64,000 nucleotides of DNA from Bdellovibrionota bacterium (GTDB lineage: Bacteria; Bdellovibrionota_C; UBA2361; JAAYZI01). The DNA lies in the NCBI GenBank assembly GCA_050950765.1, contig JBMNIF010000002.1, forward strand, positions 64,001 to 128,000, read 5' to 3'. The position numbers were made by a program, and so were the translations under genes. Below the pieces are notes generated by a model that searched no databases, had not been told where the DNA came from, and saw nothing but the letters and a program-made list of their open reading frames with translations. Shown piece by piece: positions 10,810-33,165 of this stretch. Positions within the stretch are counted from its first letter, which is position 1; each line of letters begins with the position of its first letter.

Positions 10810-11602
10810 AAAAATCTGGTGCCACCCTTCTTTTTTGCCGCTTTGGCGGCTTAAGCGATTTGACGCGATAGTTCGGCGAATTTGGTGCCACCCACCAGTT
10901 AAAGTGGGTGTCCTAATTGGGGCAGGGGTCGAAAATTTGGTGCCACCCACCAGTGCTAAAAAACTCTAAAATTGTAATAGCTAATAATATCAGTATGTTA
11001 GCAAAAGTCCTGCATTCGGCGAATTTGGTGCCACCCTTCTTTGTTGCAGGCTGTCGCTGGTGCCACCCACTAGGGACGATTGAACGGGTGGACGAATTTG
11101 GTGCCACCCACCAGTTAAAAGTGGGTGTCCTAATTGGCAGCTAGTAATATCAGTATGCTAGTAAAAGTCCTACATTCGGCGAATTTGGTGCCACCCTTCT
11201 TTTTTGCCGCTTTGACGGCTTTGGTCAAAAATTTGGTGCCACCCTTCAGTTTGAGCGGATCTTAACGGCTTGTCACTGGTGCCACCCACCAGTGTTACAA
11301 GACTCTAAAATCAGGATAGCCAATAATATCAAGATGTTAGCAAAAGCTTAGCATTCGGCGAATTTGGTGCCACCCTTCAGGGACAGCAGGACGGGCTGCA
11401 ACTGCAAAACAGATCGGTTAGGTTTCTACGGAGGTTAAAAATTTGGTGCCACCCTTTAGGGACAATTACCCTCCACCCACTAGGGGCGCTTGAGCGGGCT
11501 GATACAGAAAAGCGAATTAGCCAGATTTTCTACGGAGGTTAAAAATTTGAGCGGGCTACAACTGCAAAACGGATTCGGCTAGGTTTCTACGGAGGTCAAA
11601 AC
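10810..11602 (+). repeat. Modular repeat array 1: 11 copies of core TGGTGCCACCC with re-used spacer modules
   Basis: Cores at about 10817, 10883, 10938, 11026, 11058, 11099, 11186, 11234, 11278, 11365, 11444. Confidence 0.95.
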
Positions 11603-11604
11603 TC

Positions 11605-13053
11605 TTAACCTTGCTTTTTTAAGCTCTCTGCAATTTTTAAAATTTGCTGCGTAGCTTTTTTGACATCATTCAACGTGCCGTTTCCGCCGACACAACCACC
11701 TTCACAACACATCACTTCCACCAAATTACCTTCAGGGCAAACTTTATCTTTGGCAAATTTTCTTAACTTTCTAATTGAGTCTTTATTTAATCCGTCAATT
11801 AAGCACGGCTCAAGTTTAACTTCAGGTTTTAAAGCATTTTTTACGGCTGTAGCAACTCCGTTAGTTATACCGAAATTTTTACCATCAACGGAACTAAAAT
11901 CAGGGAAAGCAGATTCTTCACATTCTAGAATTTCAATATGTTCTGCAACAAACCACGCACCTAATTCTTTATAGTTAATAACATAATCAACATTAGGATT
12001 ATCTCTTCCCTCAACACGCTTAGCAGCACACGGACTAACAAAAACTGTTACGCTTTGCGGATGAAGCCGTTTAACTATCTCTGCCGTATAATAGAGTGGT
12101 GTTTGAGTATCAGAAACAAACTCCAACAGATCTGGGATATGTTTATTTAAAAGTTGTCTATACCCTGCACAACACGAAGTCGTCATAAAAGGTTGCCCCT
12201 GATCCATTCTTTCCGCAAACTCAGCAGCTTCATTAGAGATCGTAACATCAGCACCTTGCGCCACTTCATAAACATCTGAAAATCCCAATTTCAGAGCAGC
12301 ACTACGCAGTTGCCCCATTGTTCCCGGCATCTGCCCTGCAATAGAGGGTGCCAACATGGCGATAACTTCTTTGCCTTGCTTAATATCCCTCAATATATCG
12401 ACGATCTGACTTTTTTCATGCACCGCACCAAACGGACAAGCCGCAATACACTTCCCGCAATTTAAACACATTTCAAAATCTATCTTAGCCAAGCCACCTT
12501 CATCTTTAGAAATGGCACCAACTGGACAAGCATCCTCACACGGCACCGTAATTTTAACGATGGCATTATACGGGCAAGCTGCAATACACATCTTACAGTT
12601 TTTACACTTTTCACGATCAATAAAGGCTTTGCCATTCTGCATATAAATTGCATCAAACTTGCAGATACTTTGACACGGTCGCGCCACACACCCTTGACAC
12701 AGATCAGTCACAAAAACTCTATTAGGAGTACAGCCTTTACACGCCGTATCTAAAACCGTCAAAATATTTCTCTCAGGAGCCTCACGCTTCAACGCTTTTT
12801 TAGCCAAGTCACGCAAAGAGGTACTTTCCTCAACCTCATCAATAGCGAAACCTAAACTTGCAACCACCCGATCTCTGAGAATAGCGCGCTCTTTATATGT
12901 GCAGCACCTGTAAGTGACCTCAGATCCCTTTGGACGCATCTCATAAGGGATGATTCTAACATTTTCTGCAAAATCACCAGAATCAAAAGCCTTAATCAAT
13001 CTGACCAAAACTTCTTTTTTTAAACGTATCGCCTGATCATTATTATTGTTCAT
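11605..13053 (-). CDS. Monomeric [FeFe]-hydrogenase with ferredoxin domains (group B / HfsD-like)
   Basis: H-cluster motifs TSCCA, SPCAAKRVE and EVMCCEGGCVGG; several CxxCxxCxxxC 4Fe-4S motifs. Confidence 0.9.
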   Translation of the reverse strand: MNNNNDQAIRLKKEVLVRLIKAFDSGDFAENVRIIPYEMRPKGSEVTYRCCTYKERAILRDRVVASLGFAIDEVEESTSLRDLAKKALKREAPERNILTVLDTACKGCTPNRVFVTDLCQGCVARPCQSICKFDAIYMQNGKAFIDREKCKNCKMCIAACPYNAIVKITVPCEDACPVGAISKDEGGLAKIDFEMCLNCGKCIAACPFGAVHEKSQIVDILRDIKQGKEVIAMLAPSIAGQMPGTMGQLRSAALKLGFSDVYEVAQGADVTISNEAAEFAERMDQGQPFMTTSCCAGYRQLLNKHIPDLLEFVSDTQTPLYYTAEIVKRLHPQSVTVFVSPCAAKRVEGRDNPNVDYVINYKELGAWFVAEHIEILECEESAFPDFSSVDGKNFGITNGVATAVKNALKPEVKLEPCLIDGLNKDSIRKLRKFAKDKVCPEGNLVEVMCCEGGCVGGNGTLNDVKKATQQILKIAESLKKQG

Positions 13054-13306
13054 CTTCTAACTTCTTATCAATCGCAACCAAAACCTTTTCAATAGTGGCT
13101 TCAGAAATAACTTCATCATCAATCCTAACATACGGGGCTTTAGAATACTCCCAATTGACAGCACATAAGCTGAGACATGGACTCCTCACAACCTCAACCT
13201 TATCGCCATATCTGCTCGGAATAATCTCCATCAACTCTTGCAGATTAGAAGAGCCCATCACAAAACAGGTCGTTCCAAGGCAAACTTTGACTGTTATCTT
13301 TTCCAT
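13043..13306 (-). CDS. Thioredoxin-like [2Fe-2S] ferredoxin (NuoE-like)
   Basis: VCLGTTCFVMG...CLSLC...APYV pattern. Confidence 0.85.
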   Translation of the reverse strand: MEKITVKVCLGTTCFVMGSSNLQELMEIIPSRYGDKVEVVRSPCLSLCAVNWEYSKAPYVRIDDEVISEATIEKVLVAIDKKLEDEQ

Positions 13307-13314
13307 ATTACACC

Positions 13315-14478
13315 TCACATATATTGAATCAAAACCTTTTTAAGGTACTTTTCCTCAAGCAACTTAGCTATCTTTTTTACCACCGTTTTACGCACCTCAA
13401 TCTCCACAGGGAAACGAGGATCGTAATGAGCCTGATTTATTTTGGCACCAACCATAAAATTCACGCAGTCATTATTCAAAAAGAATCTTACTAAGTGCCC
13501 AGCAGCATCGTCTGCTGTTGTCTCATTCTTTTCGAGGTATTCCACCGCCTTAGAAAGGGTCAAGATCCCCTCCGTTACTAGATCAATTCCTTGCATATAT
13601 GAGAGAGCAGGTAAAGACCCGTTATTTAGTGAGAACTTATTTTCTATCGGAATACCCAACTCTCTGGAGATTAAATTAGCAGTCGTCCCACCACATATAG
13701 CCTTATCGCCTTTAAAATTTTTAAATATATTGGCATAAAATCCGTCCTTATCTGCATAGTACGGAGGCCCTGTAAAAACAAGGGCTTCTCGAGGATCTCT
13801 GCAATAAACAGAGACTGCCGAAATATCATCATGTGCCTGTTGTTCTACTTCAATTTGTAAGGCATACCTCACAACTTGCTGTGCCAACTCTCGACTTGAT
13901 ATTAAAGGATCGTGCGCAATCTCCTTTAAAACAAGATCAATTAAACCACTTCTTCTTAAACCTAGTTTAAATTGTGGATTCCCCAACCCCGCTTGCGTCA
14001 CACCGTCAGAACAAAAGAGCAAGCGATCAAACTTTTCCAAAGAGATCTTATAAATACGCATATGTCGATTAGGAAAAGCTTTTGATGTAATTACCGTAGA
14101 ATCCGGCTGTAAAACGTAGCCTTCTCTGATCCAAACAAATTGAGGATTCCCCTCTTCAACAATAGTAACTTCACCATCATCACTACAATCAAAAACTGAA
14201 AAGGTAGAATAACTGATCTTCCGCACCTTACAAACAGGCAAGGCGTTCATAATAATTTCACACGATTTACCGATATCAGAGTCAGCCTTAACAAATTTCA
14301 GCAACATTGTCGCCGTCATTGTAGCTAAAATATTCGCTTTTACTCCACTGCCAAGCCCATCAGAAAGAACAGCAATTAACCTGCCGAAATCTTGATACCG
14401 TCTAGAAATAAAGAAATCGCCATAAGTATGCTGCTTATGTTTTTTTTCTTGGCTACAATCAATGTCTATAAACATCAA
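13315..14478 (-). CDS. SpoIIE/PP2C-like Ser/Thr phosphatase (HfsC-like)
   Basis: LSDGLGSGVKANI, SDGVTQAG, DDIS and ICGGTTA motifs; position in a hydS operon. Confidence 0.88.
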   Translation of the reverse strand: MMFIDIDCSQEKKHKQHTYGDFFISRRYQDFGRLIAVLSDGLGSGVKANILATMTATMLLKFVKADSDIGKSCEIIMNALPVCKVRKISYSTFSVFDCSDDGEVTIVEEGNPQFVWIREGYVLQPDSTVITSKAFPNRHMRIYKISLEKFDRLLFCSDGVTQAGLGNPQFKLGLRRSGLIDLVLKEIAHDPLISSRELAQQVVRYALQIEVEQQAHDDISAVSVYCRDPREALVFTGPPYYADKDGFYANIFKNFKGDKAICGGTTANLISRELGIPIENKFSLNNGSLPALSYMQGIDLVTEGILTLSKAVEYLEKNETTADDAAGHLVRFFLNNDCVNFMVGAKINQAHYDPRFPVEIEVRKTVVKKIAKLLEEKYLKKVLIQYM

Positions 14479-16196
14479 TCAATATCCTCATCTTTATCGA
14501 GATTAAAGTTTTCTGCAATGGAGGCGAGCAGCAGCTCTGTGTCAACCATATGTTCCCCCAAGAGGCAGGCGATCTCTTGCACCACAGAAATGTTTTTCGA
14601 AATTACAGCTCGAGCTTTTCTCGCAATCTTTTCTCTATCGCTCTCCGATTGAGTCACATCAGAGATAACGGCTCCAACAATAGTATGCGGCTCTATCGTA
14701 AAAGCTGTAATGTCATAAAGACGACCATTAAGGGGATAATGCTCTTTATGTAGATCCTTTCCTGATTTTAAAGCACTTTTCATAATAGGAGAGAGTTTAA
14801 CAACCTTATCAAGCTCAGCATTCGCCAAACCCTCTGGCAAAGCGGCATAAAGATCATAAGAATCTCCGCAAAACATACGCATAAAAGCATCATTAGCTTC
14901 AGTAATATTTAATTTATCATCAACCATCACAATAGCAGCTGGCATAGAGCGTAACATCGCTGCCGCTTTTCTCGTGGCAATTTTTCTCATATAGGAAACG
15001 CACATCGAAGATTCTGCCTCTCCTGCTAACATAGCACACGCCAAATCTCTACAAGTTTGGTAACCACAACCACCACAATTTAATTCATCATCTTCATTGT
15101 ATTTTCCGATCTTCTGCATGGCAGCAACGATCTCATTTAAGGTGAAATTAGCCTCCTTTATCGGTTGCGCCTGATATTCTTCAGCAAGTACGAGAGCGGG
15201 CTCTTGCGGAATTTTTTCTCTTTCTTTAACTCGCGATAAAATATTTGAATTGATAGTAATCGTTGCTTTTGAAGTTGAGATAGACGGACCATTTATGCAG
15301 CCGCCATCGCACGCCAACGCTTCAACAAAGATCTTTTTATCGATACTACTTTCTGTTAAACCGTGTAATGATTTCTGAAAAGATTGCAAAGAACTGACGG
15401 TCATAAGTTGGACATCTTGTGGAATTCCGATTTTTTTTATCGTTTCATTCATGCCACCTTCAATGGGATACAACCCTCCCTCATGAGCATGATCTGGCAC
15501 AAAGATATCTTGATCTGTAATTTCAAGATCATCAGAATCTGCCTGCGATTCTTTAATCCAGAACTTTAAGCCTTCAAAAGTTAACGCCGCAGCGAGCAGA
15601 TCGGGATGACGCGCAGCTTCATTTTTTTTGCCGATACACGGCCCAATAAAAACTACAATACAATCCTGCCCAAAATACTCTTTTAACATCTTAGCATGAG
15701 TTAAAGCTGGAGAAGCGATGGGAGTAATATTTTTTACATATTCCGCATCATAACACCGTACATAGTCAACTATTACAGGGCAGGCGCTGGAGATATACAA
15801 ACCGTTAGGGGCATCTTTTAACATTTTAGCAGTTTGAATCGAAACCTGCTGTGCTCCCAAAGCCGTTTCGCTAACATAGTGAAAGCCTAACCTTTTAAGA
15901 ATGGCTATCATTTTAGAAGGTGAATAATCAAAGACGCCCGCCCAACTTGGTGCTAAAGAAGCTATAACTTTTTTACCTGTGGCAAAGATCTCTGGCATTC
16001 TATCGTTATCACGACGTACTCTTTTAGCATTACTCGGACAAATTCTAACGCAATGCCCGCAAGCTATGCACTTATCGTTGATAACAGAGGCGTGGTTATC
16101 TTTGATCTTGATGGCCTTAACAAGACACTCCCTTACACATCTGTAACAGTCATGACATTCGTTCTGCAATGTATATACAGGACATAGATCATCCAT
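14475..16196 (-). CDS. Sensory [FeFe]-hydrogenase HydS (group C, HfsB-like) with C-terminal FeS and PAS domains
   Basis: N-terminal 2x[4Fe-4S]; ISSACP, GPCIGKKNE and LACDGGCING motifs; LNCGGCGYQTC FeS domain; PAS-like C-terminus. Confidence 0.9.
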   Translation of the reverse strand: MDDLCPVYTLQNECHDCYRCVRECLVKAIKIKDNHASVINDKCIACGHCVRICPSNAKRVRRDNDRMPEIFATGKKVIASLAPSWAGVFDYSPSKMIAILKRLGFHYVSETALGAQQVSIQTAKMLKDAPNGLYISSACPVIVDYVRCYDAEYVKNITPIASPALTHAKMLKEYFGQDCIVVFIGPCIGKKNEAARHPDLLAAALTFEGLKFWIKESQADSDDLEITDQDIFVPDHAHEGGLYPIEGGMNETIKKIGIPQDVQLMTVSSLQSFQKSLHGLTESSIDKKIFVEALACDGGCINGPSISTSKATITINSNILSRVKEREKIPQEPALVLAEEYQAQPIKEANFTLNEIVAAMQKIGKYNEDDELNCGGCGYQTCRDLACAMLAGEAESSMCVSYMRKIATRKAAAMLRSMPAAIVMVDDKLNITEANDAFMRMFCGDSYDLYAALPEGLANAELDKVVKLSPIMKSALKSGKDLHKEHYPLNGRLYDITAFTIEPHTIVGAVISDVTQSESDREKIARKARAVISKNISVVQEIACLLGEHMVDTELLLASIAENFNLDKDEDID

Positions 16197-16440
16197 CCTT
16201 TAACCCTTTTAAAATTTCTTGCAACTTCTCTTGAGTTACTTGCGTATAAGAAACACCGTTCACCTTTAAATTAGGACCATCCTGACACTTCCCCTCACAA
16301 CCGAGACCCACAAGATCTATTTTAGCATCTAAGCCATTGTCACTGATATATCGTTCTATAAGTTCTAAATTTCTATCATTCCCCCTCGCAAAACAGGCAC
16401 TGCCCATACATATTTTTACTTCAACCTTCATTCTTTCCAT
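16189..16440 (-). CDS. Thioredoxin-like [2Fe-2S] ferredoxin (HfsA-like)
   Basis: ICMGSACFARGN...CEGKCQDGPN. Confidence 0.87.
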   Translation of the reverse strand: MERMKVEVKICMGSACFARGNDRNLELIERYISDNGLDAKIDLVGLGCEGKCQDGPNLKVNGVSYTQVTQEKLQEILKGLKDG

Positions 16441-17068
16441 CCTTGTAATGCACGGTAAAGCGCAAAAAATTACCGATTAAATTTTCGTTCCAGACCTGTA
16501 CGGTATCCGGCACCGTTAATACCGTCGGAGAAAAATTCCAGATCAATTTTATCCCTGCCGACACTAAAATTTCAGCCACCTCCTGAGCAACTTGTCGAGG
16601 AACTGTTAGAATTGCTATTTCAACATTTAATCTCTGCACCAGATTTTGCAGTTTGCTGATATGAAAGATCTCTTTACCGTTTACTGTTGCTCCGATTCGC
16701 AACGGATCATTATCAAATAACGCCAAAATATTTAGTCCATAGTCCGTAAAGTTATCGTACTTCGCCAGAGCAAACCCTAGATTACCGGCGCCAACAATAA
16801 AAGCATCCTTAGGCTCCTCAAAGCCTAATGTTTTTTCGATAGAAGCTCTTAGTTCCGCCATATCATACCCAACTTTACACCGCCCAGAGTTGTTGAGTAA
16901 TCTTAAGTCTTTTCTAACTTGTGAATCGTCTATCTTTAACAGTTCAGCAATACGAGGGCTAGAGATGGTGACCTCCCCCTTTTCCAAACGGTCTATCAGT
17001 ATACAGTGATAGAGCGTTAAACGTTCGATCACCTTTTGAGATAGTTGCTTTGACATTTTTTTGCTCAA
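16421..17068 (-). CDS. rex: Redox-sensing transcriptional repressor Rex
   Basis: RLTLY, winged helix SQVRKDL, GY motif, Rossmann VGAGNLG, IWNFSP. Confidence 0.95.
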   Translation of the reverse strand: MSKKMSKQLSQKVIERLTLYHCILIDRLEKGEVTISSPRIAELLKIDDSQVRKDLRLLNNSGRCKVGYDMAELRASIEKTLGFEEPKDAFIVGAGNLGFALAKYDNFTDYGLNILALFDNDPLRIGATVNGKEIFHISKLQNLVQRLNVEIAILTVPRQVAQEVAEILVSAGIKLIWNFSPTVLTVPDTVQVWNENLIGNFLRFTVHYKDGKNEG

Positions 17069-19695
17069 ACTCCTTCAAAAGCCTGTACAAAAATTTCTCT
17101 TATCTCACTCATTAGTGGATAAGCAGGATTAGCACCCGTACACTGATCATCAAAGGCCAACTCTACGAGGGTATCCAGTTTTTCGTAGAAGTCAGATTCT
17201 GACACACCAGCAGCACGTATTGATAGTGGAATATTAAGTTCCTTTTTTAATTCTGTTATAGCACAAATCAAAGACTCAACTTTTTCTTGATCGGTCTCCC
17301 CCGCCAGTCCCAACTCATCTGCTATCTGTGCATAACGCGCTCTTCCGTTTGGAAAACGATACTGCGGAAAGGTAGCTTGTTTTGTTGGGCAATCATTGGA
17401 ATTAAAGCGGATAACCTGATTAATAATCAACGCATTAGCGATTCCGTGCGGCAAATTAAAAGCTGCTCCAAGCTTGTGCGCCATAGAGTGACACAATCCA
17501 AGAAAGGCATTAGCAAAGGCCATCCCAGCTAAGGTTGAAGCATAGTGCATTTTTTCTCTAGCAATCGGATCGTTTTTCCCATTTTTATAAGAACGGGGTA
17601 AATAACGGAAGATTAACTTTATCGCTTCCAAAGCAGGAGAATTGGTAAAATTAGTCGCCAACACTGAAGCATAAGCTTCTAAAGAATGTGTTAAAGAATC
17701 AATTCCTGAAGCAGCACACAGCCCCTGCGGCATGGAATCAACAAAATTAGGATCGATAATCGCCATATTTGGTGTTAAGGCATAATCTGCGATCGGATAT
17801 TTGATATGTGTCTCATCATCAGTAATAACGGCAAACGGCGTTACTTCTGAACCTGTACCGGAAGTAGTCGGGATAGCTACCATTAGAGCTTTTTTACCAA
17901 GTTCTGGCACCTGACAGATACGCTTCCTGATATCCATAAAACGCATAGCGATATTATCAAAAGAGATCTCAGGTTGTTCATACATCAACCATAATATTTT
18001 AGCTGCATCTATCGGAGATCCGCCACCTAAAGCGATAATAACATCGGGCTCATAAGTTTTTAGCATAACCAGAGCTTCATTTATCGTCGAAGTGGAAGGA
18101 TCAGGTTTGACATCAAAATAGATCTGATAATCGATCCCAACTTCTGCTAAAACACTCGTAACTCGATCTACCATATTTGAATTAAACAGATACCGATCTG
18201 TCACAATAAAGGCGCGTTTTCTACCTACTAACTCCCTTAAGGCCAGATCGGTAGCACCACGCTTAAAATAAATTTTCGGTGGAACCTTAAACCACAACAT
18301 ATTCTCCCTCCTCTCTGCCACAGTCTTATAATTTAAAAGATGCTTTACTCCGACATTTTCACTTACAGAATTACCACCCCAAGATCCGCAGCCTAAAGTT
18401 AAGGATGGTTCAAGTCTGAAATTATAAAGATCACCGATTCCACCTTGAGAAGATGGTGTGTTAATTAAGATCCTCCCCGTATTTAGCTTAGCAGCAAAGG
18501 CAGCTATGCGATCTTTTTTTCTATCATCCGTATACAATACTGAAGTATGTCCAGCTCCGCCCAACTGCACCAAGTGATAAGCTTTTTCAAGCGCCTCTTT
18601 AAAATCTTCCGCTTGATACAATGCGATAACAGGCGATAATTTTTCATAAGAGAACTCCTCCTCTAACGATATCTCCGTCACCTCGCCGACTAGAATCTTA
18701 GTCCATTGCGGCACACTTATCCCAGCAAGTTGTGCAATCTTACAAGCAGGTTGTCCAACAATTGCTGCATTAACCTGTCCATTAATAATTACCGTTTTAG
18801 CGACTGCTGCTTTCTCTTCCTCATTAAGGATATATGCTCCGCGCCGCTGCAACTCTGCCACGACCGCCGCATAAACCTCTTTTAAGACGATGATTGATTG
18901 TTCAGAAGCGCAAATCATGCCGTTATCAAAGGTTTTTGACATAATAATTGATGAAACAGCCATCTGAATATCTGCCGTTTCATCTATCACGGCGGGAGTG
19001 TTTCCTGCACCAACTCCAAGTGCAGGCTTGCCTGAAGAATAGGCAGCCTTCACCATGCCAGGACCACCCGTTGCCAAGATTGTTGCGATATCTTTATGTG
19101 ACAAAAGATGATTAGTTAATTCCAAGGACGGCGTATCGATCCAACCGATAATATCAGCTGGTGCACCTGCTTTAACTGCCGCATCTAAAACGATCTTAGC
19201 AGCAGCGATCGTTGATTTTTTTGCACGTGGATGCGGAGAAAAAATTATCGCATTCCTCGTTTTAAGTGAGATTAAAGACTTAAAGATAGCGGTTGATGAC
19301 GGATTTGTCGTCGGTACAATACCGGCGATAATTCCTAACGGTTCCGCCACAATCTTTATCCCGTTAGCTTCATCTTCCTGAATCACACCGCAAGTTTTTG
19401 CATTTTTATGCTTATTGTATACGTACTCAGAGGCAAAATGATTTTTTATCACCTTGTCCTCCAATACCCCCATCCCCGTCTCTTCGACAGCCATCCGCGC
19501 CAATTCAATACGGGCAACATTAGCTGCAATAGCACCTGCCTTAAAAATCCTATCAACTTGATCTTGTGAATATTTAGCGTAGATTTCTTGTGATTTTTTT
19601 ACCCTATTGATTAGATTATCTAACTTTTCAATATTATCGACTAACATACTTGATTCATTATCTATCTCTTTATTTTCTAGTGATTTTTGAGCCAT
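17065..19695 (-). CDS. adhE: Bifunctional acetaldehyde-CoA/alcohol dehydrogenase
   Basis: 876 aa; ATGGPGMV, FDNGMICASEQ, LGCGSWGGNS, GGGSPIDAAK, TTSGTGSE, CHSMAHKLG. Confidence 0.97.
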   Translation of the reverse strand: MAQKSLENKEIDNESSMLVDNIEKLDNLINRVKKSQEIYAKYSQDQVDRIFKAGAIAANVARIELARMAVEETGMGVLEDKVIKNHFASEYVYNKHKNAKTCGVIQEDEANGIKIVAEPLGIIAGIVPTTNPSSTAIFKSLISLKTRNAIIFSPHPRAKKSTIAAAKIVLDAAVKAGAPADIIGWIDTPSLELTNHLLSHKDIATILATGGPGMVKAAYSSGKPALGVGAGNTPAVIDETADIQMAVSSIIMSKTFDNGMICASEQSIIVLKEVYAAVVAELQRRGAYILNEEEKAAVAKTVIINGQVNAAIVGQPACKIAQLAGISVPQWTKILVGEVTEISLEEEFSYEKLSPVIALYQAEDFKEALEKAYHLVQLGGAGHTSVLYTDDRKKDRIAAFAAKLNTGRILINTPSSQGGIGDLYNFRLEPSLTLGCGSWGGNSVSENVGVKHLLNYKTVAERRENMLWFKVPPKIYFKRGATDLALRELVGRKRAFIVTDRYLFNSNMVDRVTSVLAEVGIDYQIYFDVKPDPSTSTINEALVMLKTYEPDVIIALGGGSPIDAAKILWLMYEQPEISFDNIAMRFMDIRKRICQVPELGKKALMVAIPTTSGTGSEVTPFAVITDDETHIKYPIADYALTPNMAIIDPNFVDSMPQGLCAASGIDSLTHSLEAYASVLATNFTNSPALEAIKLIFRYLPRSYKNGKNDPIAREKMHYASTLAGMAFANAFLGLCHSMAHKLGAAFNLPHGIANALIINQVIRFNSNDCPTKQATFPQYRFPNGRARYAQIADELGLAGETDQEKVESLICAITELKKELNIPLSIRAAGVSESDFYEKLDTLVELAFDDQCTGANPAYPLMSEIREIFVQAFEGV

Positions 19696-19720
19696 TTTCT
19701 CTTCCTAAAAGCATTTTTAA

Positions 19721-19771
19721 TCGTGATTTATTTCACTATTTAACAATAAACCACCTCCACCCCCTCGTCAA
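19721..19771 (-). promoter_or_regulatory. adhE operon promoter (TTGACG-N17-TATTGT) with Rex operator TAGTGAAATAAATCACGA at 19721-19738
   Basis: 11 of 14 defined positions match the Rex consensus TTGTGAAnnnnTTCACAA; the site overlaps the predicted +1. Confidence 0.75.
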
Positions 19772-19785
19772 GTCAATTTTGAATA

Positions 19786-20732
19786 AAATTTGGTGCCACC
19801 CTTCTTTTTTACCGCTTTGACGGCTTAAGCGACTGGATGAATTTGGTGCCACCCACCACTTTAAAGAGATCTGGCTAGGCTTGGATCTGGTGCCACCCTT
19901 CAGGGACGATCGAACGGGCTGTGACTACAAAACGAATCGGTTAGGTTTTCACGAAGGTTAAAAATTGGTGCCACCCTTCTTTTTTGCCGTTTTGACAGCT
20001 TAAGCGACTGGATGAATTTGGTGCCACCCTTCAGGGACGATCGAACGGGCTGCAACTAAAAACGGATCAGTTAGGTTTCTACGGAGGTTAAAAATTTGGT
20101 GCCACCCTTCAGGGACGACTGGACGGGCTGATACTACAAAACGAATCGGTTAGGTTTCTACGGAGGTCAAAAATTTGGTGCCACCCTTCAGTTAAAGGTG
20201 GGTGTCCTAATTGGAAAGCTTCAGGGACGATCGAACGGGCTGCAACTAAAAACTGATCAGCTAGATGTTTACGGGGGTCAAAATTTGGTGCCACCCTTCA
20301 GGGACGACTGGACGGGCTGATACTACAAAACGAATCGGTTAGGTTTCTACGAAGGTCAAAAATTTGGTGCCACCCACCAGTGCTAAAAGACTCTAAAATT
20401 ACGATAGATAATAATATCAAGATGTTAGCAAAAGCTTAGTATTCGGCGAATTTGGTGCCACCCTTCAGGGACGATCGAACGGGCTGTGACTACAAAACGA
20501 ATCGGTTAGGTTTTCACGAAGGTTAAAAATTTGGTGCCACCCTTCAGTAGGGCTTGGATCTGGTGCCACCCTTCAGTAAAAAGTGGGTGTCCTAATTGGT
20601 AGCTAATAATATCAGTATGTTAGTAAAAGTCCTGCATTCGGCAGTTTTGGTGCCACCCACTAGTTAAAGGTGGGTGTCCTAATTGGAAAGCTTCAGGGAC
20701 GATTGAGCGGGCTGCAACTCCTTTAGGGACGG
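19786..20732 (+). repeat. Modular repeat array 2: 13 copies of core TGGTGCCACCC
   Basis: Cores from 19791 to 20648, with the same module set as array 1. Confidence 0.95.
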
Positions 20733-20805
20733 TTTATTCTAAGTGGTATTAAAAACAGTAAAAAAATGGTAGTTATGCACCTAATTGAAGATAAGAGGTG
20801 TGTTT

Positions 20806-21549
20806 ATGGGAATAACTTATAAAGAAGCAAGGATCATCTCGAATGATCGGGTGATTGATAATATTTTTAAAATGACCTGTGAAGATAGCAACTCCGTTAT
20901 TCCAGGGCAGTTCTATATGCTCAAGGCTAAAGGAGAAACTTTTTTAGCACGTCCCATCAGTGTCTACGAAAAAAGTCCTAATTCCGTTACATTTTTATAT
21001 GCCGTAGTTGGTAAGGGCACAGCAGAGTTTTCTGCTCTTAAAGTGGGAGACACCATCAACTTAACTGGTCCCGTAGGTAACGGCTTCGACGTAAAAAGCT
21101 TATGTGGCAAGATCGCCTTAGTTGCGGGTGGAATCGGCATTGCTCCATTCCTTGAAGTTGCAAAGGCTTTACATCAGCACGATTTAGTTACAACTCTTGA
21201 TCTTTATGCTGGCTTTAGAGACACCCCTTATCTTATTTCTGATTTTAAGCCTTATGTTTCTGCAGCACACCTTGCTTCAGAGACGGGGAAGGAAGGATAT
21301 AAAGGGTTTATAACTGATATTTTAAACCCTGCTGACTATGACTGCATCCTTTGTTGTGGACCTACCATAATGATGCAAAAAGTTGTCGCATTATGTCTGG
21401 AAAAGCAGGTTAAAGTTTTCGTTTCAATGGAAAAAAAGATGGCGTGTGGAGTTGGCGCTTGCTTAGGCTGCACCTGTCGAACGCAAGACGGGATAAAAAG
21501 AACGTGTGTAGATGGCCCTGTTTTTGATGGCACCCTTATACAATTCTAA
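20806..21549 (+). CDS. pyrK: Dihydroorotate dehydrogenase B electron transfer subunit
   Basis: RPISV, GGIGIAP, CGP and MACGVGACLGC...CVDGPVF. Confidence 0.93.
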   Translation: MGITYKEARIISNDRVIDNIFKMTCEDSNSVIPGQFYMLKAKGETFLARPISVYEKSPNSVTFLYAVVGKGTAEFSALKVGDTINLTGPVGNGFDVKSLCGKIALVAGGIGIAPFLEVAKALHQHDLVTTLDLYAGFRDTPYLISDFKPYVSAAHLASETGKEGYKGFITDILNPADYDCILCCGPTIMMQKVVALCLEKQVKVFVSMEKKMACGVGACLGCTCRTQDGIKRTCVDGPVFDGTLIQF

Positions 21550-21571
21550 ATGAACGGAGAAAATAATAACC

Positions 21572-22468
21572 ATGTTAAAAGTAAATATTAACGGTCTTGA
21601 ATTTAAAAATCCCGTTATTGCGGCATCTGGAACGTTCGGCTTTGGATCTGAATATAACGATTTTTACGATGTCGGAATTTTGGGTGGAATATCTTCAAAA
21701 GGATTAACTATAAACCCTAAAGAGGGGAATGATGGCTGCCGTATTTTTGAAACATCTTCCGGCATGATGAACTCGATCGGACTAACTAATCCAGGTATCG
21801 ACAAATTTATCGAGTGTGAGCTTCCGAAGATGGAAGCTTTTGGCACCAATATAATAGCCAATGTCGGCGGTGGTTCTTTTGAAGATTATGCTGCTGCCAT
21901 AGAAAAACTTAATTACACTTCGATAGATATGATCGAGCTAAATATCTCCTGCCCGAATGTTAAATGTGGCGGCATGGCATACGGCATTAAGGGAGGGATC
22001 GCATACGACTTTGTTAAAGAGATCCGCCCGCTCTGCAAAAAACCGTTAATGGTGAAACTTTCTCCGAATGCTGAAAATATCGTTGAAATGGCGCAAAAAT
22101 GTGAAGCAGCTGGTGCTGACTCTATCAGCCTCATCAACACCCTAAAAGGTATGGCGATAGATATAAAAAAGCGCAAACCAGTATTTAATAACGTTTACGC
22201 TGGACTTTCCGGCCCTGCCATTAAACCTGTAGCTCTACGCATGGTTCATGAAGTATCAAAAGCAGTTAAGATTCCAGTTATCGGCTTAGGTGGTATCTGT
22301 AATGCTACTGATGTGATCGAGTTTATGATGGCAGGCGCTAGGGCGTGTCAGATCGGAACGGTTAATTTTATAAACCCTCTGGCGGGGAAAGAGATAATTG
22401 AAGGGCTTAAACTTTTTTGTGAAGAAGAAGGGATTAAAGACATAAACGATATCGTCGGCGTTATCTAA
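21572..22468 (+). CDS. pyrD: Dihydroorotate dehydrogenase B catalytic subunit
   Basis: [35 protein letters not shown]. Confidence 0.95.
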
Positions 22469-22588
22469 AATGTGTTATTTGTGCCGCATATTGTTTTTTA
22501 CCTGATAAGTTGACAGTAAAAGCTACCTTGTAACACTTCTAACAATAGTATCTGGCAGAAAACTGAAACAACACATATTCTGAGACGC

Positions 22589-23986
22589 ATGGAAGAGAAT
22601 GATATAAGAAAAATAATTGAAGAGTTTGGTGCCTCTATCTATTTTGATAAAGAGATGGCACATGAAGATATTATGGGCAGCCTCGCTCAAGTAGCGATGC
22701 TTAATAAGATTTCAGTTCTTACTGATGAAGAAGCTGCCACCCTCAAGCGGGGCTTATCTGATTTAGCAAAACAGGTCGAAGAGGGTTCATTTATCTTTGA
22801 TCCGACCTATGAAGATATTCATATGAATATTGAAAAGGCGCTTTTTGCCGTTGTCGGAGAGGTGGCGGGGAAACTTCATACAGGACGCAGCCGTAACGAT
22901 CAAGTTGCGCTTGATATGCGTCTTTATTTACGCAATCAAGTACTCAAGGTCATCACTGGATTGATTAAATTGCAAAAAGCGCTCCTCGAGCAAGCAAAGA
23001 AACACTTTAATACTATCTTACCTGGATATACACATCTACAACGTGCGCAGCCTGTTCTTTTGGCTCATCACTTGATGGCTTACGCTTGGATGTTTAATCG
23101 CGATAGTAATAGATTGATTGATGCGTGGAAACGTCTCAACACCCTTCCTTTAGGATCGGGGGCTTTAGCGGGTAGCACCTTTCCATTGGATCGAGAGTAT
23201 GTCGCGGATCTATTAGCTTTTGATAGCATCTGCGAGAACAGTATGGACGGTGTTAGTGACAGAGATTTTATCTTGGAGTTCCTCGCCTGTGCCTCTATCT
23301 TTATGGTACACATCTCACGGATTAGCGAAGAGTTTATATTGTGGAGCAGTGCCGAATTCGGTTTTCTTGATTTAGACAGACGTTTTTGCAGTGGCAGTAG
23401 TATTATGCCTCAAAAGATAAACCCTGATATGGCAGAATTAAGTCGTGGCAAAGCCGGACGTGTCTTTGGAAACTTAATGGGGATGTTAACTGTCATAAAG
23501 GGGCTTCCCCTCGCCTACAACAAAGACTTACAAGAAGACAAGGAGGGGATGTTTGATACTGTGAAAACTATAAATCAGGTTCTTAAAGTTTTCACTCCCA
23601 TGATCGCCACAGCTACCTTTAACACTGAAAGGATGCGTCAAGCTGCCGACTTGAGTTATGCTAATGCTACTGATTTAGCGGACTATTTAGCAAGGAAAGG
23701 GATCCCGTTTCGTGAGGCACACGGTATTGTTAAAAAGCTTGTGATCTCTGCACACGAATCAGGGCGTGCCTTAGAAGACCTCCCTCTTTCAGAACTGCAA
23801 GAGTTCTCTCCTGTTATAGCAGATGATGTTTACCAAATTTTAAAAACGGAGGTAGTAGTTGCCGCAAGGGACACTCGTGGAGGAACTGCTCCCACACAAG
23901 TCAAACTACAAGCAGAGCGTCTAGCAGCTGCAATCACCGAACTTGAAGATTGGTTAAACACAACTTCAGCTACATTAAAAGTTTAG
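22589..23986 (+). CDS. argH: Argininosuccinate lyase
   Basis: HTGRSRNDQ, PGYTHLQRAQP, GSSIMPQKINPD, YNKDLQEDKE. Confidence 0.96.
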   Translation: MEENDIRKIIEEFGASIYFDKEMAHEDIMGSLAQVAMLNKISVLTDEEAATLKRGLSDLAKQVEEGSFIFDPTYEDIHMNIEKALFAVVGEVAGKLHTGRSRNDQVALDMRLYLRNQVLKVITGLIKLQKALLEQAKKHFNTILPGYTHLQRAQPVLLAHHLMAYAWMFNRDSNRLIDAWKRLNTLPLGSGALAGSTFPLDREYVADLLAFDSICENSMDGVSDRDFILEFLACASIFMVHISRISEEFILWSSAEFGFLDLDRRFCSGSSIMPQKINPDMAELSRGKAGRVFGNLMGMLTVIKGLPLAYNKDLQEDKEGMFDTVKTINQVLKVFTPMIATATFNTERMRQAADLSYANATDLADYLARKGIPFREAHGIVKKLVISAHESGRALEDLPLSELQEFSPVIADDVYQILKTEVVVAARDTRGGTAPTQVKLQAERLAAAITELEDWLNTTSATLKV

Positions 23987-23988
23987 CC

Positions 23989-24070
23989 GAATTTAGTAAC
24001 ACCCTTTAGGGACGATTGAACGGGCTGATACTAAAAAATGAACTGGCTAGATCTGTACGGAGGTTAAAAA
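23989..24070 (+). repeat. Solo unit of the modular repeat (degenerate core plus module B)
   Basis: GAATTTAGTAACACCC-TTTAGGGACGATTGAACGGGCTGATAC...ACGGAGGTTAAAAA fills the gap between two convergent genes. Confidence 0.9.
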
Positions 24071-25353
24071 CCTTTTAGTGCTGCGGTGCAAAGTGCATCG
24101 TGAAATTTTTGATTATTTTGGTAGTGAGCTCCAAAAAGGGCATCCCATATCTCGGGCTTTTCCATACAGAGATAGATAAAGACCTTTTTATGCCACGCTT
24201 CTAAGGCAGAGTATAGGCATTTAAAGAGCTTCAATTTTATCTCATCTGTATAAGTAAGTTTACCGAGTGGATCTGACGAGAAGTTCATCTGTAAAATTTT
24301 AGTTATCCCGCCGCGCCGTCTGATCTCCTGTATAACGGGCTTGATAAAAGTTACAGACCCCATACTGATGAAACTTATCTGCGCAGGAACAAAAGTTTTT
24401 AATAGCCTTTCAATTATTGCAGGATATTCACTATCCCAACCTTTGTAGTAGATCATAGGATGAAAATGAAACGCTACCTTAACGCCTCTAGCGGCAACAA
24501 CTTCAGCAGCAGAGATACGGTCATTAAGAGAAGATGTAAAGTGTTCTTCGTTTCTGATAATGGCTTCACTGTTTAACGTCCATGAACAGACTACGTTTTT
24601 AGGGATTGTATGATTTTTAAAGTAATCAACGTTAGCTGATTTTGTTTTAAACTCCAGTAAGACATTAGGATGATCTGCTGCAAACTCGCATAAGTTATCC
24701 AGTATTCCAAAAGAGTTTCCCCACATTAAAGAATCTGAGGACTGCCCCGTACCAAAATGATAAAATCTATTCGGATCGACCTCTATCGAACGCAACTTCT
24801 CTTTTAAATCACCATCAAATAAAATTTTTCTGTGGTCACCGTAAAAAGTTTGAATCGTGCAATAACTGCAAGCAAATCCGCAATTTTGTACAGCATCAAT
24901 CGTTTTTAATCCGCAACAAAGTGTTTTATCGGAATAAACTGGACAATCCCCGAAAATTTTTTTTGACGAAACCTCCTCTACAAGATCTAAACGTGGAGAA
25001 GGTGGAGCTTTTGCAAAACCTTCACCGTACGACTTCTCTTCTGCGCATAACGCCTCTCGCTTTTTATTCAAGAGTGATAATAGCCGTTTTTTTCGTTGTT
25101 GCAGCTGCTCTGCAGCATTGAGTGAAGTTTCAGATTCTACGAGGCTCCATAATTCAGAGAGCGTTTGACCTCCCCACATCGCAAGATCTCGAGCAAGATC
25201 TGAAACAATTTTCAGATCTTGAAAAGAGAAACGATACTTAAATGCGATCTCTTTAATAAAAGCACGATCTGCTTCGCATAAAAGCGGATAAAGAGTTTGC
25301 TGGTGCATCCGCTCAAATTTATCAAGATATGGATCAAGCACAAAAAACCTCAC
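24064..25353 (-). CDS. Spore photoproduct lyase-like radical SAM protein
   Basis: CGFACSYC motif, GTGQSSDSL, LEFKTKS, AFHFHP, YLCME. Confidence 0.8.
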   Translation of the reverse strand: MRFFVLDPYLDKFERMHQQTLYPLLCEADRAFIKEIAFKYRFSFQDLKIVSDLARDLAMWGGQTLSELWSLVESETSLNAAEQLQQRKKRLLSLLNKKREALCAEEKSYGEGFAKAPPSPRLDLVEEVSSKKIFGDCPVYSDKTLCCGLKTIDAVQNCGFACSYCTIQTFYGDHRKILFDGDLKEKLRSIEVDPNRFYHFGTGQSSDSLMWGNSFGILDNLCEFAADHPNVLLEFKTKSANVDYFKNHTIPKNVVCSWTLNSEAIIRNEEHFTSSLNDRISAAEVVAARGVKVAFHFHPMIYYKGWDSEYPAIIERLLKTFVPAQISFISMGSVTFIKPVIQEIRRRGGITKILQMNFSSDPLGKLTYTDEIKLKLFKCLYSALEAWHKKVFIYLCMEKPEIWDALFGAHYQNNQKFHDALCTAALKGF

Positions 25354-25370
25354 CTGTAAGCGTTAAATGT

Positions 25371-25904
25371 TTAACGCCTCTTTTTACCATTTTTACGGTG
25401 ATTTTCATCTTTTTTTCTATTTTCATCTCTTTTTCTATTTTTTTCTGGTTTGCGTGGTTCGTTCTTCTTATCTCTTTTAGGTTTTTTTACAGCAGGATCG
25501 CGCACACCACCCCGATCTCGATCTTTTACACGTTTGTCAGGACGTGGTTTCTTACGAACATCTGGCTTATTCCTACGACTCGGTTTTTTCGGCTTCGGTG
25601 GTTCTACCCTCCTCTCGGCAGGCGGTTTTCTTATATCAGATCCGGCAGGACGATGCGGAGCAGGCGGTCTCCGATAATCAGGGCGTGGTGGTTTCCCTGG
25701 TGGTGGTCGATACCCCCTAGCGTGGTCAGGCGGTGGATATCTTACATCACCACGCCGTGGCGGTCTTCTGTAATCATCTCGGTAGTAGTCATCATCATCA
25801 TAATAGTAATAATAGCTATCACCACTATGATACGGATCATCAAAATCATTAACACATCCGAAAAAACAGAAAAGCGGTATTAGTAATAAAATAGTTCGTA
25901 ACAT
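25371..25904 (-). CDS. Low-complexity lipoprotein (Tyr/Asp, then Pro/Arg, then Lys-rich)
   Basis: Signal peptide with lipobox FFGC; disordered composition. Confidence 0.65.
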   Translation of the reverse strand: MLRTILLLIPLFCFFGCVNDFDDPYHSGDSYYYYYDDDDYYRDDYRRPPRRGDVRYPPPDHARGYRPPPGKPPRPDYRRPPAPHRPAGSDIRKPPAERRVEPPKPKKPSRRNKPDVRKKPRPDKRVKDRDRGGVRDPAVKKPKRDKKNEPRKPEKNRKRDENRKKDENHRKNGKKRR

Positions 25905-26463: not shown

Positions 26464-26488
26464 CATTTCGATCTATAACTTCTAGATT

Positions 26489-28467: not shown

Positions 28468-28500
28468 GGTGGCAGTGGAGTCGGTCGTAATTAAATCGTA

Positions 28501-29895: not shown

Positions 29896-30067
29896 AAAGA
29901 ACGTCCCCCCTCCCGATAGTATTTAAGTTTTTTCTATACATTAGTACCTCAATTTGAATATTTGCAAGCCAAAATATCCATAAAAAACACCTTCAAGCCT
30001 TCCCATTAAACTTACTTTAAGCTAATATCCAGCCCCGTGGTTAGCTATTTTAAGCAGCCGTAAAAAT

Positions 30068-30145
<78 letters not shown>

Positions 30146-30281
30146 CTTTTATAACGACACCATCATCCGCAGTTTTGTTGTGAACGCATTATAGAATCCT
30201 AAATATCTGGATGATTCTAATCTTTTATGCTATTTACTTGAAGTAATCTTTTCATTCTCTATAAATCTCTAAAGGTTCGAC

Positions 30282-31079
30282 ATGGCAAGAAGGAAGAAGC
30301 AGTCATTTTTAAAGAAGCTTTTGATTATCGCTGGTATTTTACTCGTTGCACAAATTGTGTTTTCACTTACCCTTACAAAAAGAAACACTTCGAAAACTTG
30401 GAAAGAATCAGCGAAGAACGCCATCGCTGCCAATCCTGAACTTACAGCGGAACAACAACCTGCTGTAATGATAAGGCTAGCTCTTCTAGATTATAGGAAC
30501 AAGAACGGCAGTTGCCCTGAAAACTTATCAAAGCTTGTTCCCGAATATCTTAGTTCTGTTCCGTTAGATCCAACAACGAAGGCACCGTTTCAATACGTAG
30601 TAAACGGTAAAAAATGCACCTTAGTTCTTTCTAAATCCAAAACAGATAGAGATAGTAAAGGTAGTGAGGATAACGTGGCATCAGAAACTCTCTCGGAATC
30701 TGATCAGGCTGAGATGCTTGACTCTCTTAATAAAAAAGATTTGGCTTCAGAGTATATTTACACCTCAGAAGGGAAAAAAGATCCTTTTCGATCTTATGAT
30801 TTCACCCCACATCGGGTAATTCAAAACAAAGACAATCCACTTGAATCTTACACCTATGACGAGTTGAAACTAACAGCGGTCTTAGGTGGGATCGGCCAAC
30901 CGACTGCGATTATAGAAAATCCTGAAGGGAAAGGGTTTACGGTAAGGGTCGGTACAAAGATCGGCAATCACGGCGGAGAGGTGGTTAAGATTGAACCTGG
31001 CAAGATAACTATCGTTGAAAGTACAGTTGAGTTCACAGGTGAAACCAAGAACAGAACGATAGATATGTTTTTAAGATAA
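30282..31079 (+). CDS. PilP-domain protein with N-terminal TM helix and pseudopilin-like domain
   Basis: C-terminus Y..EGKKDPF...PLESYTYDELKLTAV...G.KIG.HGGEV is PilP-like; N-terminal YRNKNGSCPENLSKLVPEYLSSVPLDP resembles GspG/pilin-like domains. Confidence 0.7.
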   Translation: MARRKKQSFLKKLLIIAGILLVAQIVFSLTLTKRNTSKTWKESAKNAIAANPELTAEQQPAVMIRLALLDYRNKNGSCPENLSKLVPEYLSSVPLDPTTKAPFQYVVNGKKCTLVLSKSKTDRDSKGSEDNVASETLSESDQAEMLDSLNKKDLASEYIYTSEGKKDPFRSYDFTPHRVIQNKDNPLESYTYDELKLTAVLGGIGQPTAIIENPEGKGFTVRVGTKIGNHGGEVVKIEPGKITIVESTVEFTGETKNRTIDMFLR

Positions 31080-31087
31080 AATTTATT

Positions 31088-33165
31088 ACCACCCACTAGG
31101 GACAATAGGGCGGGCTGCAATTGCAGAGCGAATCGGTTAGGTTTCTACGAAGGTTAAAAATTTGGTGCCACCCTTCTTTTTTGCCGCTTTGACGGCTTGG
31201 GCGACTGGATAAATCTGGTGCCACCCTTTAGGGACCGCAGGACGGGCGCGATTGCAGAATGGGATCGGCTAGGTCTGTACGGAGGTTAAAAATTTGGTGC
31301 CACCCTTCAGAAGCTCCCCCACCTTTTAGGGACGATTAAGCGGGCTGATACTAAAAAACGAAGTAGCTAGACCTAGACGGGGGTAAAAAGTGGGTGTCCT
31401 AATTGGCAGCTAATAATATCAGTATGTTAGTAAAAGCCCTGCATTCGGCAGTTTTGGTGCCACCCTTCAGGGACGATCGAACGGGCTGTGACTACAAAAC
31501 GAATCGGTTAGGTTTTCACGGAGGTTAAAAATTTGGTGCCACCCTTCTTTTTTGCCGCTTTGACGGCTTAAGCGACTGGACGAATTTAGTGCCACCCTTC
31601 TTTTTTGCCGCTTTGACGGCTTGGGCGACTGGATAAATTTGGTGCCACCCTTTAGGGACCGCAGGACGGGCGCGATTGCAGAATGGGATCGGCTAGGTCT
31701 GTACGAAGGTTAAAAATTTGGTGCCACCCTTCAGAAGCTCCCCCACCTTTTAGGGACGATTAAGCGGGCTGATACTAAAAAACGAAGTAGCTAGACCTAG
31801 ACGGGGGTAAAAAGTGGGTGTCCTAATTGGCAGCTAATAATATCAGGATGTTAGCAGAAGCTTAGGATTCGACGGTTTTGGTGCCACCCTTTAGGGATCG
31901 CAGGACGGGCGCGATTGCAGAATGGGATCGGCTAGGTCTGTACGGAGGTTAAAAATTTGGTGCCACCCACCAGTACCGATCGCCCACTAGGGACCGCTGA
32001 ACGGGCTGATACTGCAAAACGAGTCAGCTAGATTTTGACGGAGGTTAAAAATTTGGTGCCACCCTTCAGAAGCTCCCCCACCTTTTAGGGACGATTAAGC
32101 GGGCTGATACTAAAAAACGAAGTAGCTAGACCTAGACGGGGGTAAAAAGTGGGTGTCCTAATTGGCAGCTAATAATATCAGTATGTTAGTAAAAGCCCTG
32201 CATTCGGCAGTTTTGGTGCCACCCTTCAGGGACGTTAAAAAACTGGTGCCACCCTTCTTTTTTGCCGCTTTGACGGCTTGGGCGACTGGATAAATTTGGT
32301 GCCACCCTTTAGGGACCGCAGGACGGGCGCGATTGCAGAATGGGATCGGCTAGGTCTGTACGGAGGTTAAAAATTTGGTGCCACCCTTCAGAAGCTCCCC
32401 CACCTTTTAGGGACGATTAAGCGGGCTGATACTAAAAAACGAAGTAGCTAGACCTAGACGGGGGTAAAAAGTGGGTGTCCTAATTGGCAGCTAATAATAT
32501 CAGTATGTTAGTAAAAGCCCTGCATTCGGCAGTTTTGGTGCCACCCTTCAGGGACGATCGAACGGGCTGTGACTACAAAACGAATCGGTTAGGTTTTCAC
32601 GGAGGTTAAAAATTTGGTGCCACCCTTCTTTTTTGCCGCTTTGACGGCTTAAGCGACTGGACGTGGCAGTTTTGGTGCCACCCAACAGGGACGATAGAAC
32701 GGGCTAAAACTACAAGACGAAGCAGCTAGATCTCTACGGGGGTCAAAAATCTGGTGCCACCCTTCAGGGACAGCAGAGCGGGCTGTAACTACAAAACGAA
32801 TCGGTTAGGTCTGTACGGAGGTTAAAAATTTGGTGCCACCCTTCAGAAGCTCCCCCACCTTTTAGGGACGATTAAGCGGGCTGATACTAAAAAACGAAGT
32901 AGCTAGACCTAGACGGGGGTAAAAAGTGGGTGTCCTAATTGGCAGCTAATAATATCAGGATGTTAGCAGAAGCTTAGGATTCGACGGTTTTGGTGCCACC
33001 CTTTAGGGACGGCTGAACGGGCTGCAACTGCAAAACGAATCGGTTAGATCTGGACGGGATGAATTTACCACCACCTACTAGAGACGCTTGAGCGGGCTGA
33101 TATTAAAAAGCAAGTTGGTTAGATTTTGACGGAGGTTAAAAATTTGGTGCCACCCTTCAGTGACA
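31088..33165 (+). repeat. Modular repeat array 3: 21 exact cores plus 1 variant, with higher-order repeats
   Basis: Cores from 31163 to 33145; a ~420-bp block at 31163 recurs almost identically at 32244. Confidence 0.96.

Follow-up and report, generated by a model that had tools for sequence, protein, structure and literature searches.

Introduction

According to the available text of their description, TIRtrons consist of a tyrosine transposase gene enclosed by terminal inverted repeats (TIRs) that are unrelated to repetitive extragenic palindromes (REPs) of the GTAG type and that are found as singles, dimers and groups (PMC3733652). A further architecture is known from Neisseria, where neisserial intergenic mosaic elements (NIMEs) form long, dynamic arrays in which a short conserved core is placed between spacers of 50-150 bp that belong to more than 100 families, and where a site-specific recombinase has been hypothesised (PMC1797815, available in part). 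Here we analyse a 64-kb stretch of the genome of a Bdellovibrionota bacterium, termed the window, in which an 11-bp core, TGGTGCCACCC, recurs in arrays separated by a small set of re-used modules (A to E), and trace this core to the terminal repeat of a 1.4-kb element that encodes a 322-aa HUH/Y1 transposase resembling TnpA_REP and the TIR-associated tyrosine transposases (TIRYTs).

TIRs have been called long and their families moderately abundant, many of them carrying the motif GGGGWSAS while others lack it, and a cut site for TIRYTs is not given in the available parts of Di Nocera et al. 2013 (PMC3733652). For subclass 2.1, the accessible sections of a further survey list the motifs NH[YF]H, Y---NP and SS, no 55-aa insertion, a C-terminal helix-turn-helix (HTH)-like domain and a mean identity of 49% between copies, and report that no REP-like sequences were found near 2.1 or 2.3 genes (PMC6006769). 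REP-associated tyrosine transposases (RAYTs) are said, in a source available in part, not to replicate themselves (10.1101/2021.07.10.451892), although 6.3% of the members of RAYT group 1 have a duplicate (10.1101/119735, likewise in part). HUH chemistry yields a 5'-phosphotyrosine and a free 3'-OH upon cleavage, and nick-primed extension followed by re-ligation has been proposed to add units to bacterial interspersed mosaic elements (BIMEs) (PMC8266576, PMC3333891, both available in part). In the accessible portions of this literature, the origin and amplification of RAYT-type repeats are still argued from models, and TIR-associated subclasses have been described without known substrates.

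The core and the element it terminates

The window holds 45 exact copies of TGGTGCCACCC and one copy with a single mismatch (31587), against a chance expectation of 0.22. They form three arrays of 11, 13 and 22 cores, all on the plus strand, in agreement with the sequence-only reading that had noted about 45 co-oriented cores in three arrays; a stray match with one mismatch is located at 60196. Measured unit lengths (A, 48-66 bp and mostly 53 bp; B, 78-79 bp; C and D, 87-88 bp; E, 160 bp) match those given earlier, module E having been put at about 161 bp, and of the solo unit reported at 24.0 kb the module B is present behind a decayed core (Table 1). As a refinement, an A-B-E-B block, repeated at a higher order and decayed, makes up most of array 3.

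Genome-wide (G000, 2.64 Mb, with the contigs C1, C2, C3 and C5 among those referred to below), 943 exact cores are arranged in 123 clusters that cover 64 kb or 2.4% of the genome. Since 421 of these cores lie on the plus and 522 on the minus strand, the single orientation is true of the window arrays but is a local property. All but six cores (937/943) lie outside long open reading frames (ORFs), and four of the six inside look like over-extended gene starts. Adjacent cores are co-oriented in 878 of 906 pairs and inverted in 28, and inward-facing inverted pairs number 23. Clustering of the 865 units gives 212 groups, of which 115 are singletons; module B alone is represented by 186 units in 72 arrays.

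An enzyme of the HUH/RAYT type acting from outside the window had been suggested from the sequence of the arrays, and such a gene is indeed flanked by the core in all six copies of the element. None of the six falls within the window, and the closest precedes it by about 55 kb. The copies are 97.9-99.6% identical at the DNA level, five of the six proteins are identical, and the variable codons comprise 15 synonymous and three non-synonymous cases. In each copy (6/6) a core is followed by 35-36 bp, an inverted core, the gene and another inverted core. The copies often have arrays on both sides, pointing toward the gene, and the 1.4-kb unit contains no further transposase.

The 322-aa protein scores above the cut-off for PF01797 and features the motifs NHFH (H61-F62-H63), YIYINP (Y121) and SS. 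Its best match in sequence and fold is TnpA_REP of Escherichia coli (4ER8; mean predicted local distance difference test score of the model, 88.5). The C-terminal half gave neither a significant fold match nor a known family, and an HTH family was not detected in any of 15 members (15/15) at an E-value of 0.05. With the RAYT model NCBIfam NF047646 the protein reaches 67.4 bits (E 1.2e-18), which is under the curated cut-off of 80 bits.

The relation between element and arrays extends beyond the core itself. The three cores of the element are followed by the tags TTCTT, TTYAG and ACCAG, and an element end tag accompanies 678 of the 943 genomic cores exactly and 887 within one mismatch, compared with 0.6% and 7% of random sites. 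Moreover, the units beside the right end of the element are nested truncations of its own end (413, 248, 151 and 79 bp), and these occur as array units. At G000 C1:385498 a free left-end dimer with an array is present without the gene, possibly the footprint of a cassette loss.

Table 1. Location of arrays, cores, transposase genes and neighbouring features (window positions count from its first nucleotide; other coordinates refer to contigs of G000)
Feature	Location	Strand	Description
Array 1	10810..11600	+	11 co-oriented cores and decayed B modules; flanking genes convergent
Array 2	19786..20720	+	13 co-oriented cores; divergent intergenic region between AdhE-like gene and dihydroorotate dehydrogenase B subunit gene
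Solo module B	23990..24072	+	Behind decayed core (3 mismatches); flanking genes convergent
Array 3	31085..33160	+	22 cores (21 exact); largely repeated A-B-E-B blocks; flanking genes convergent
Example core TGGTGCCACCC	10817..10827	+	Terminal repeat of the six-copy Y1 element; putative breakpoint after third base (10819/10820)
Example second core AGGACACCC	10906..10914	-	Terminal repeat of the second, single-copy Y1 gene
Second-core copies in the window (n=10)	10906, 11123, 20200, 20585, 20672, 31392, 31816, 32151, 32473, 32928		
Element copies (six), all outside the window	G000 C2:7540-8894, C2:891971-893326, C2:1186466-1187821, C3:210568-211923, C5:7819-9173, C1:184052-185407		
Second Y1 gene	G000 C1:418176-419291		Single-copy, 350 aa; terminal repeat AGGACACCC; motifs NHLH and YVDLNP
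Two paralogues	5009-7690 and 8425-10713	+	TraD/VirD4-like coupling ATPase domain with C-terminal leucine-rich repeats; directly upstream of array 1
Genes between arrays 1 and 2	11605-19695	-	Two FeFe-hydrogenase-type genes, SpoIIE-type phosphatase, Rex-like regulator, AdhE
Insertion-sequence-like repeat	61936-63784 (G000 C2:125936-127784)		One of ten near-identical 1.84-kb repeats; two other copies inside core arrays

Breakpoints at the core and the proposed reaction

The arrays probably descend, as non-autonomous derivatives, from the ends of the six-copy HUH (Y1) transposon, whose 322-aa transposase likely nicks single-stranded DNA at a fixed position of the core and would in this way locally duplicate, delete and swap the units between cores. 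One indication is provided by short tandem duplications, termed stutters, on the outer side of 39 of the 943 cores. They end at position +3 in 25 cases, at +4 in eight, at +5 in four and at +2 in two, and 20 of the 25 ending at +3 show no microhomology by hand count. On the inner side ten scattered cases were found, and two control motifs yielded none and one, respectively. A fixed end at +3 combined with chance extension would lead to just this pattern of stutter ends. The enzyme likely acts on the core, and the shared endpoint YTGG^TGCC (25/39) is the probable cut site.

Longer rearrangements are one-sided as well. Chimeric units of at least 45 nt consist of a long prefix joined to a short piece from just outside the next core, with 12 of 19 junctions located within 17 nt outside that core (four expected) and four of 19 on the inner side, while the far breakpoint can end in GG in ten of 19 cases (4.2 expected; two of these are stutters). 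A tandem duplication of about 900 bp at G000 C3:397600-399260 comprises array units, a promoter and a gene start, its junction lying 5 nt outside a core.

Exchange at the core, as postulated in the sequence-only reading, is borne out by the loss of linkage across it: mutual information amounts to 0.013 bits across the core and to 0.10-0.14 bits within either side. In unit pairs that are alike in one module and unlike in the other the switch falls inside the core, variants at core positions 0-1 mostly going with the upstream module. A guide-target covariation across the core of the kind known for IS608 was considered and not seen.

A reaction that would account for these features starts with cleavage at GGGTGGCA^CCAR on the outward-reading strand. 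This is the simplest assignment because the variable stutter end has no common dinucleotide (judged by eye), whereas the fixed end is always ^CCAR. The enzyme would stay attached to the 5'-CCAR end via Tyr121, the presumed nucleophile by motif, and the free 3'-OH would be extended by a host polymerase before being re-joined to the bound end. Extension stopping after about 11 nt would give rise to a stutter, and extension stopping at the cut site of a later core to an exact duplication of one or several units, in a rolling-circle-like manner as proposed for BIMEs.

Alternatively, the transposase might seed only ends and dimers, with the arrays growing by replication slippage and RecA-type unequal exchange between the 11-16-bp cores and like modules. 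Several features of the arrays would suit such passive growth. Among the 554 units (of 849) that have a close neighbour, this neighbour resides in the same array in 366 cases (eight expected), mostly 2-7 units off, so blocks are copied locally; array 3 is organised as a tandem repeat of higher order; copies of module B share 82% identity inside an array and 74% from one array to another; and a variant lacking TTT before the core has been amplified six-fold in one array. The earlier notion of array growth by unit-wise insertion is thereby modified: growth consists for the most part in blocks being duplicated locally, not in free modules being inserted. On the other hand, slippage does not predict stutters that end at a single base without microhomology, nor one-sided chimeric junctions, and it would be better served by the longer modules than by the core, which is far more conserved: at sites defined by their flanks 136 of 146 contain the exact core, with a per-site divergence of 0.8% over 144 alignable sites as opposed to 18.5% in module B. 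We therefore consider purely passive growth unlikely.

Repeated segments were also surveyed for cargo. Among repeats of at least 300 bp, only the element itself and one local duplication are bounded by cores, and no cargo was found among the others. A 1.6-kb segment at three-fold depth between arrays, initially a candidate for a cargo gene, proved to be an insertion sequence, unrelated to the element, that had entered a module at TTTAAA. An insertion sequence of 1.59 kb with a 478-aa ORF and short inverted ends resides at TTTAAA in module D (L048:7584-9172, corresponding to G000 C2:1182083-1183671); four of its five copies lie within about 100 bp of a core.

Helical phasing and genomic context

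The distances from one core to the next are concentrated near multiples of 11 bp. When each cluster contributes a single length, the best period is 11.1 (n=215, R 0.36), for singleton units it is 11.0 (n=119, R 0.28), and none of 500 jittered sets reached the observed R in either case. An 11-bp periodicity of A-tracts was not evident in the arrays. Under the transposase reading, phasing would arise if the cores that react with each other lay on one and the same side of the helix.

The same regularity could, however, be held by selection rather than by reaction geometry, if sites that began as transposon ends were now retained by the host to bind, in helical phase, a protein involved in chromosome organisation or transcription. 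In line with this, the phase persists at 49-70 bp (R 0.39) and at 71-115 bp (R 0.35), fading to a non-significant 0.17 above 115 bp, whereas simulated random accretion of stutters (mean 11.0 nt) has lost it by 49 bp (0.05 and 0.02 in the two ranges). In module B, near-invariant sub-motifs alternate with highly variable positions. Arrays are favoured between convergent genes (35/99 compared with 203/1054), avoided between divergent ones (12/99) and, in 72 of 99 cases, read in the same direction as the gene upstream, but this gene-context bias is also accounted for by promoter avoidance. As to the orientation relative to replication origin and terminus, for which a genome-wide count had been proposed, the 943 cores yielded no strand bias of the arrays (43 vs. 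53, three undetermined, p 0.36). A host function is further at odds with the absence of expansion in relatives, a 13-mer with 529 copies here being present in at most five copies in each of 40 relatives, and with the location of other clusters near element copies (18/113 within 10 kb; expected 3.7 if uniform or 8.0 if anchored to arrays, p 0.007), which suggests recent local spread. We give the host-site explanation little credence; selfish growth that is tolerated in intergenic space is the default reading.

RNA structure and assembly support

Transcription of the arrays into a structured multi-unit RNA, with processing at the core, also appears very improbable. Read-through transcription is plausible, given that 72 of 99 arrays lie in sense orientation behind an upstream gene, yet the window lacks any Rfam match except for a tRNA, and the consensus fold of module B (ten window copies) has an energy of -2.14 kcal/mol, the covariation term being -0.02. 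Among 102 distinct B units, the column pairs that co-vary most strongly form no stem, and array 3 contains about as many terminator-like sites as expected by chance (3 vs. 2.7). Module A, proposed as a hairpin unit, has the expected length of about 53 bp, but its stem is disrupted in 20 of 48 genomic copies. Nor does the core region form a hairpin of the REP type, its fold of -2.9/-3.1 kcal/mol (200 of 943 sampled) being close to the -2.3 kcal/mol of shuffled sequences.

An assembly artefact is of practically negligible probability. Contigs from four public runs belonging to four studies, one of which could be the source sample, were compared with the window. They pass from unique DNA into the array ends without a single difference (e.g., X2 9786-10845, 11435-19814 and 20674-25500), and this in several studies; read depth over the arrays is raised about 30-50-fold, and 704 of 802 units are distinct sequences. 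No contig from these runs spans a whole array, so the internal order of units is as given by the assembly alone. Runs listed as containing the window carry the labels bioreactor, digester, wastewater, landfill or plain metagenome, with no RNA run among them, and the population appears nearly clonal.

Homologues in relatives and a second Y1 gene

Homologues of the 322-aa gene are encoded in 83 of 91 genomes of the order, and 340 cluster representatives reach an E-value of 1e-30 or better. Homologues stand in records labelled Bdellovibrionales, Bdellovibrionota, Oligoflexia, Deltaproteobacteria or Proteobacteria. Many of these genes are flanked by short inverted repeats starting with YTGG, and some are accompanied by small co-oriented arrays or by the three-core layout. 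In one relative (G015 L033:1646-1840) eleven short TGGTGCC-containing units with a spacing of 15-25 bp are situated at the end of a homologous element, and another (G046) has its own core in 15 copies. Five relatives tested with another core contain 3-14 copies, near control levels, though arrays may hide in fragmented assemblies. Near-identical gene copies are represented by one pair of 100% identity (G027), with values of 69-93% in seven genomes elsewhere.

The element does not hold the only HUH gene of the genome: a divergent Y1 gene is also present (Table 1), whose product resembles subclass 2.3. Its terminal repeat, AGGACACCC, is a motif contained in modules C and E; it has 194 genomic copies, usually in the orientation opposite to that of the main core. 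Twenty-six of them lie within 10 kb of the 350-aa gene, which has small arrays of its own nearby (G000 C1:412900-424100).

Discussion

Several observations weigh against an enzymatic origin of the arrays in the form proposed above. The choice of the cut strand follows from an indirect argument, and ordinary recombination or slippage would likewise lead to a loss of linkage at the core, since unlike modules have no homology apart from it. Because the left dimer is retained in all six element copies, the movement of the whole element is not accounted for by simple excision between the two co-oriented cores. Among 15 joints shown of 89 there was no cassette-skipping joint, empty site or new insertion, and an excised circle was not observed either. 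A general capture of local flanks into units was considered and is unsupported (6/59 arrays). The second core has one stutter in 194 copies. In relatives, the stutter signature looked sharp by eye before the scripted count, which returned scattered cases (15/55 cores in 18 loci, with ends from 0 to 7 and only three at +3). Finally, the p-values for phasing are too small because module clusters are related by descent.

The transposase reading nevertheless lends itself to a direct experiment, as the genome offers an intact and recently multiplied enzyme, about 1000 products and a cut site predicted to the nucleotide, which makes it testable by a one-oligonucleotide assay. The multiplied gene runs counter to the general statement in the literature that genes of the RAYT type make no copies of themselves, at least as worded in the accessible text, even with 6.3% of group 1 recorded as duplicated (10.1101/119735). 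The arrays also show that a NIME-like architecture exists outside Neisseria, and they add an 11-bp phasing rule of which no description was found in the literature searched.

A more far-reaching proposal, put forward tentatively and less likely to be right than wrong, is that the 322-aa protein represents an undomesticated, self-copying RAYT-like HUH branch widespread in one order. Such an enzyme would recognise an 11-bp non-hairpin duplex site, cut one fixed bond and serve as a local duplication engine that needs sites on the same helical face; it would build NIME-like mosaics from nothing and could duplicate neighbouring promoters and gene starts, the 900-bp duplication on C3 being a case in point. 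If true, this self-copying duplication engine would supply the missing link that joins IS200-type transposons to REP/BIME systems and would also be a compact tool for site-specific tandem duplication.

Comparison with known systems

No description of this element or of helical phasing in such arrays was found in the literature searched, although terminal repeats of a similar kind could appear in Figure 9 and in the additional files of PMC3733652 and PMC6006769. CRISPR had been discounted from the outset, and rightly so: instead of a 24-48-bp repeat with unique, regular spacers there is an 11-bp core with re-used spacers of 10-230 bp (one family comprising 186 units in 72 arrays), and the window has no Rfam CRISPR match.

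The closest architecture is that of the Neisseria NIME arrays (PMC1797815, available in part). Their dRS3 repeat, ATTCCC-N8-GGGAAT, comprises 20 bp and is inverted around a variable centre, whereas the core described here is fixed, asymmetric, co-oriented and non-palindromic; helical phasing of the spacing is not mentioned in the available text on NIME arrays. With REP doublets forming hairpins (REPINs) the system shares short repeats linked to a RAYT, inverted dimers (the 23 inward pairs) and clusters adjoining the gene (PMC3116915, 10.1101/2021.07.10.451892, both in part). However, the REPIN unit is an inverted doublet, while the unit here runs from core to core in direct orientation, and inverted pairs, typical of both BIMEs and REPINs, make up no more than 28 of 906 adjacent pairs.

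The likeness to BIME mosaics proposed in the sequence-only reading is well founded, given the intergenic mosaics, the local tandem similarity and the linked Y1 gene. In its presumed working the system is comparable to BIMEs and REPtrons, in its appearance to the NIME arrays. In common with REP/BIME and TnpA_REP of E. coli, as far as the accessible text describes them (PMC3333891, PMC8266576), the mosaics are intergenic with locally conserved tandem copies, insertion sequences reside in the arrays, and a nick-primed, rolling-circle-like amplification is proposed. Differences consist in the lack of a hairpin or GTAG (a GT[AG]G at a hairpin foot, as in REPs, was not found, GTAG standing just upstream of 12 of 943 cores), in the co-orientation of 878 of 906 adjacent cores and in the multiplication of the gene itself. 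The latter also distinguishes it from RAYTs, which are single-copy and domesticated, as does the NF047646 score of 67.4 bits below the cut-off of 80.

At the level of the transposase, the NH[YF]H, Y---NP and SS motifs of the 322-aa protein and its lack of a 55-aa insertion agree with subclass 2.1 by the published Table 1, while its length, and in the second gene YVDLNP, TS and a long insertion between HUH and Y, are in keeping with subclass 2.3. Unlike in both subclasses, repeats flank the gene, and unlike in subclass 2.1 the six copies are 98-99.6% identical in DNA and no HTH tail was detected. With TIRtrons and TIRYTs the system has in common a HUH/Y1 gene with a catalytic-type tyrosine (PF01797, Y121) and a fold match to 4ER8, non-GTAG inverted repeats that flank the gene in all six copies and in many relatives, and the dispersal of the repeat. 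It departs from TIRtrons in that the repeat is 11-16 bp long, is present in about 1000 copies, lacks GGGGWSAS (the second core matches six of its eight positions) and forms co-oriented kilobase-scale arrays with a library of modules. As it falls in this described class, the system is not one of a new kind but an unusual variant among TIRtron/BIME-like systems, traced to a known enzyme class.

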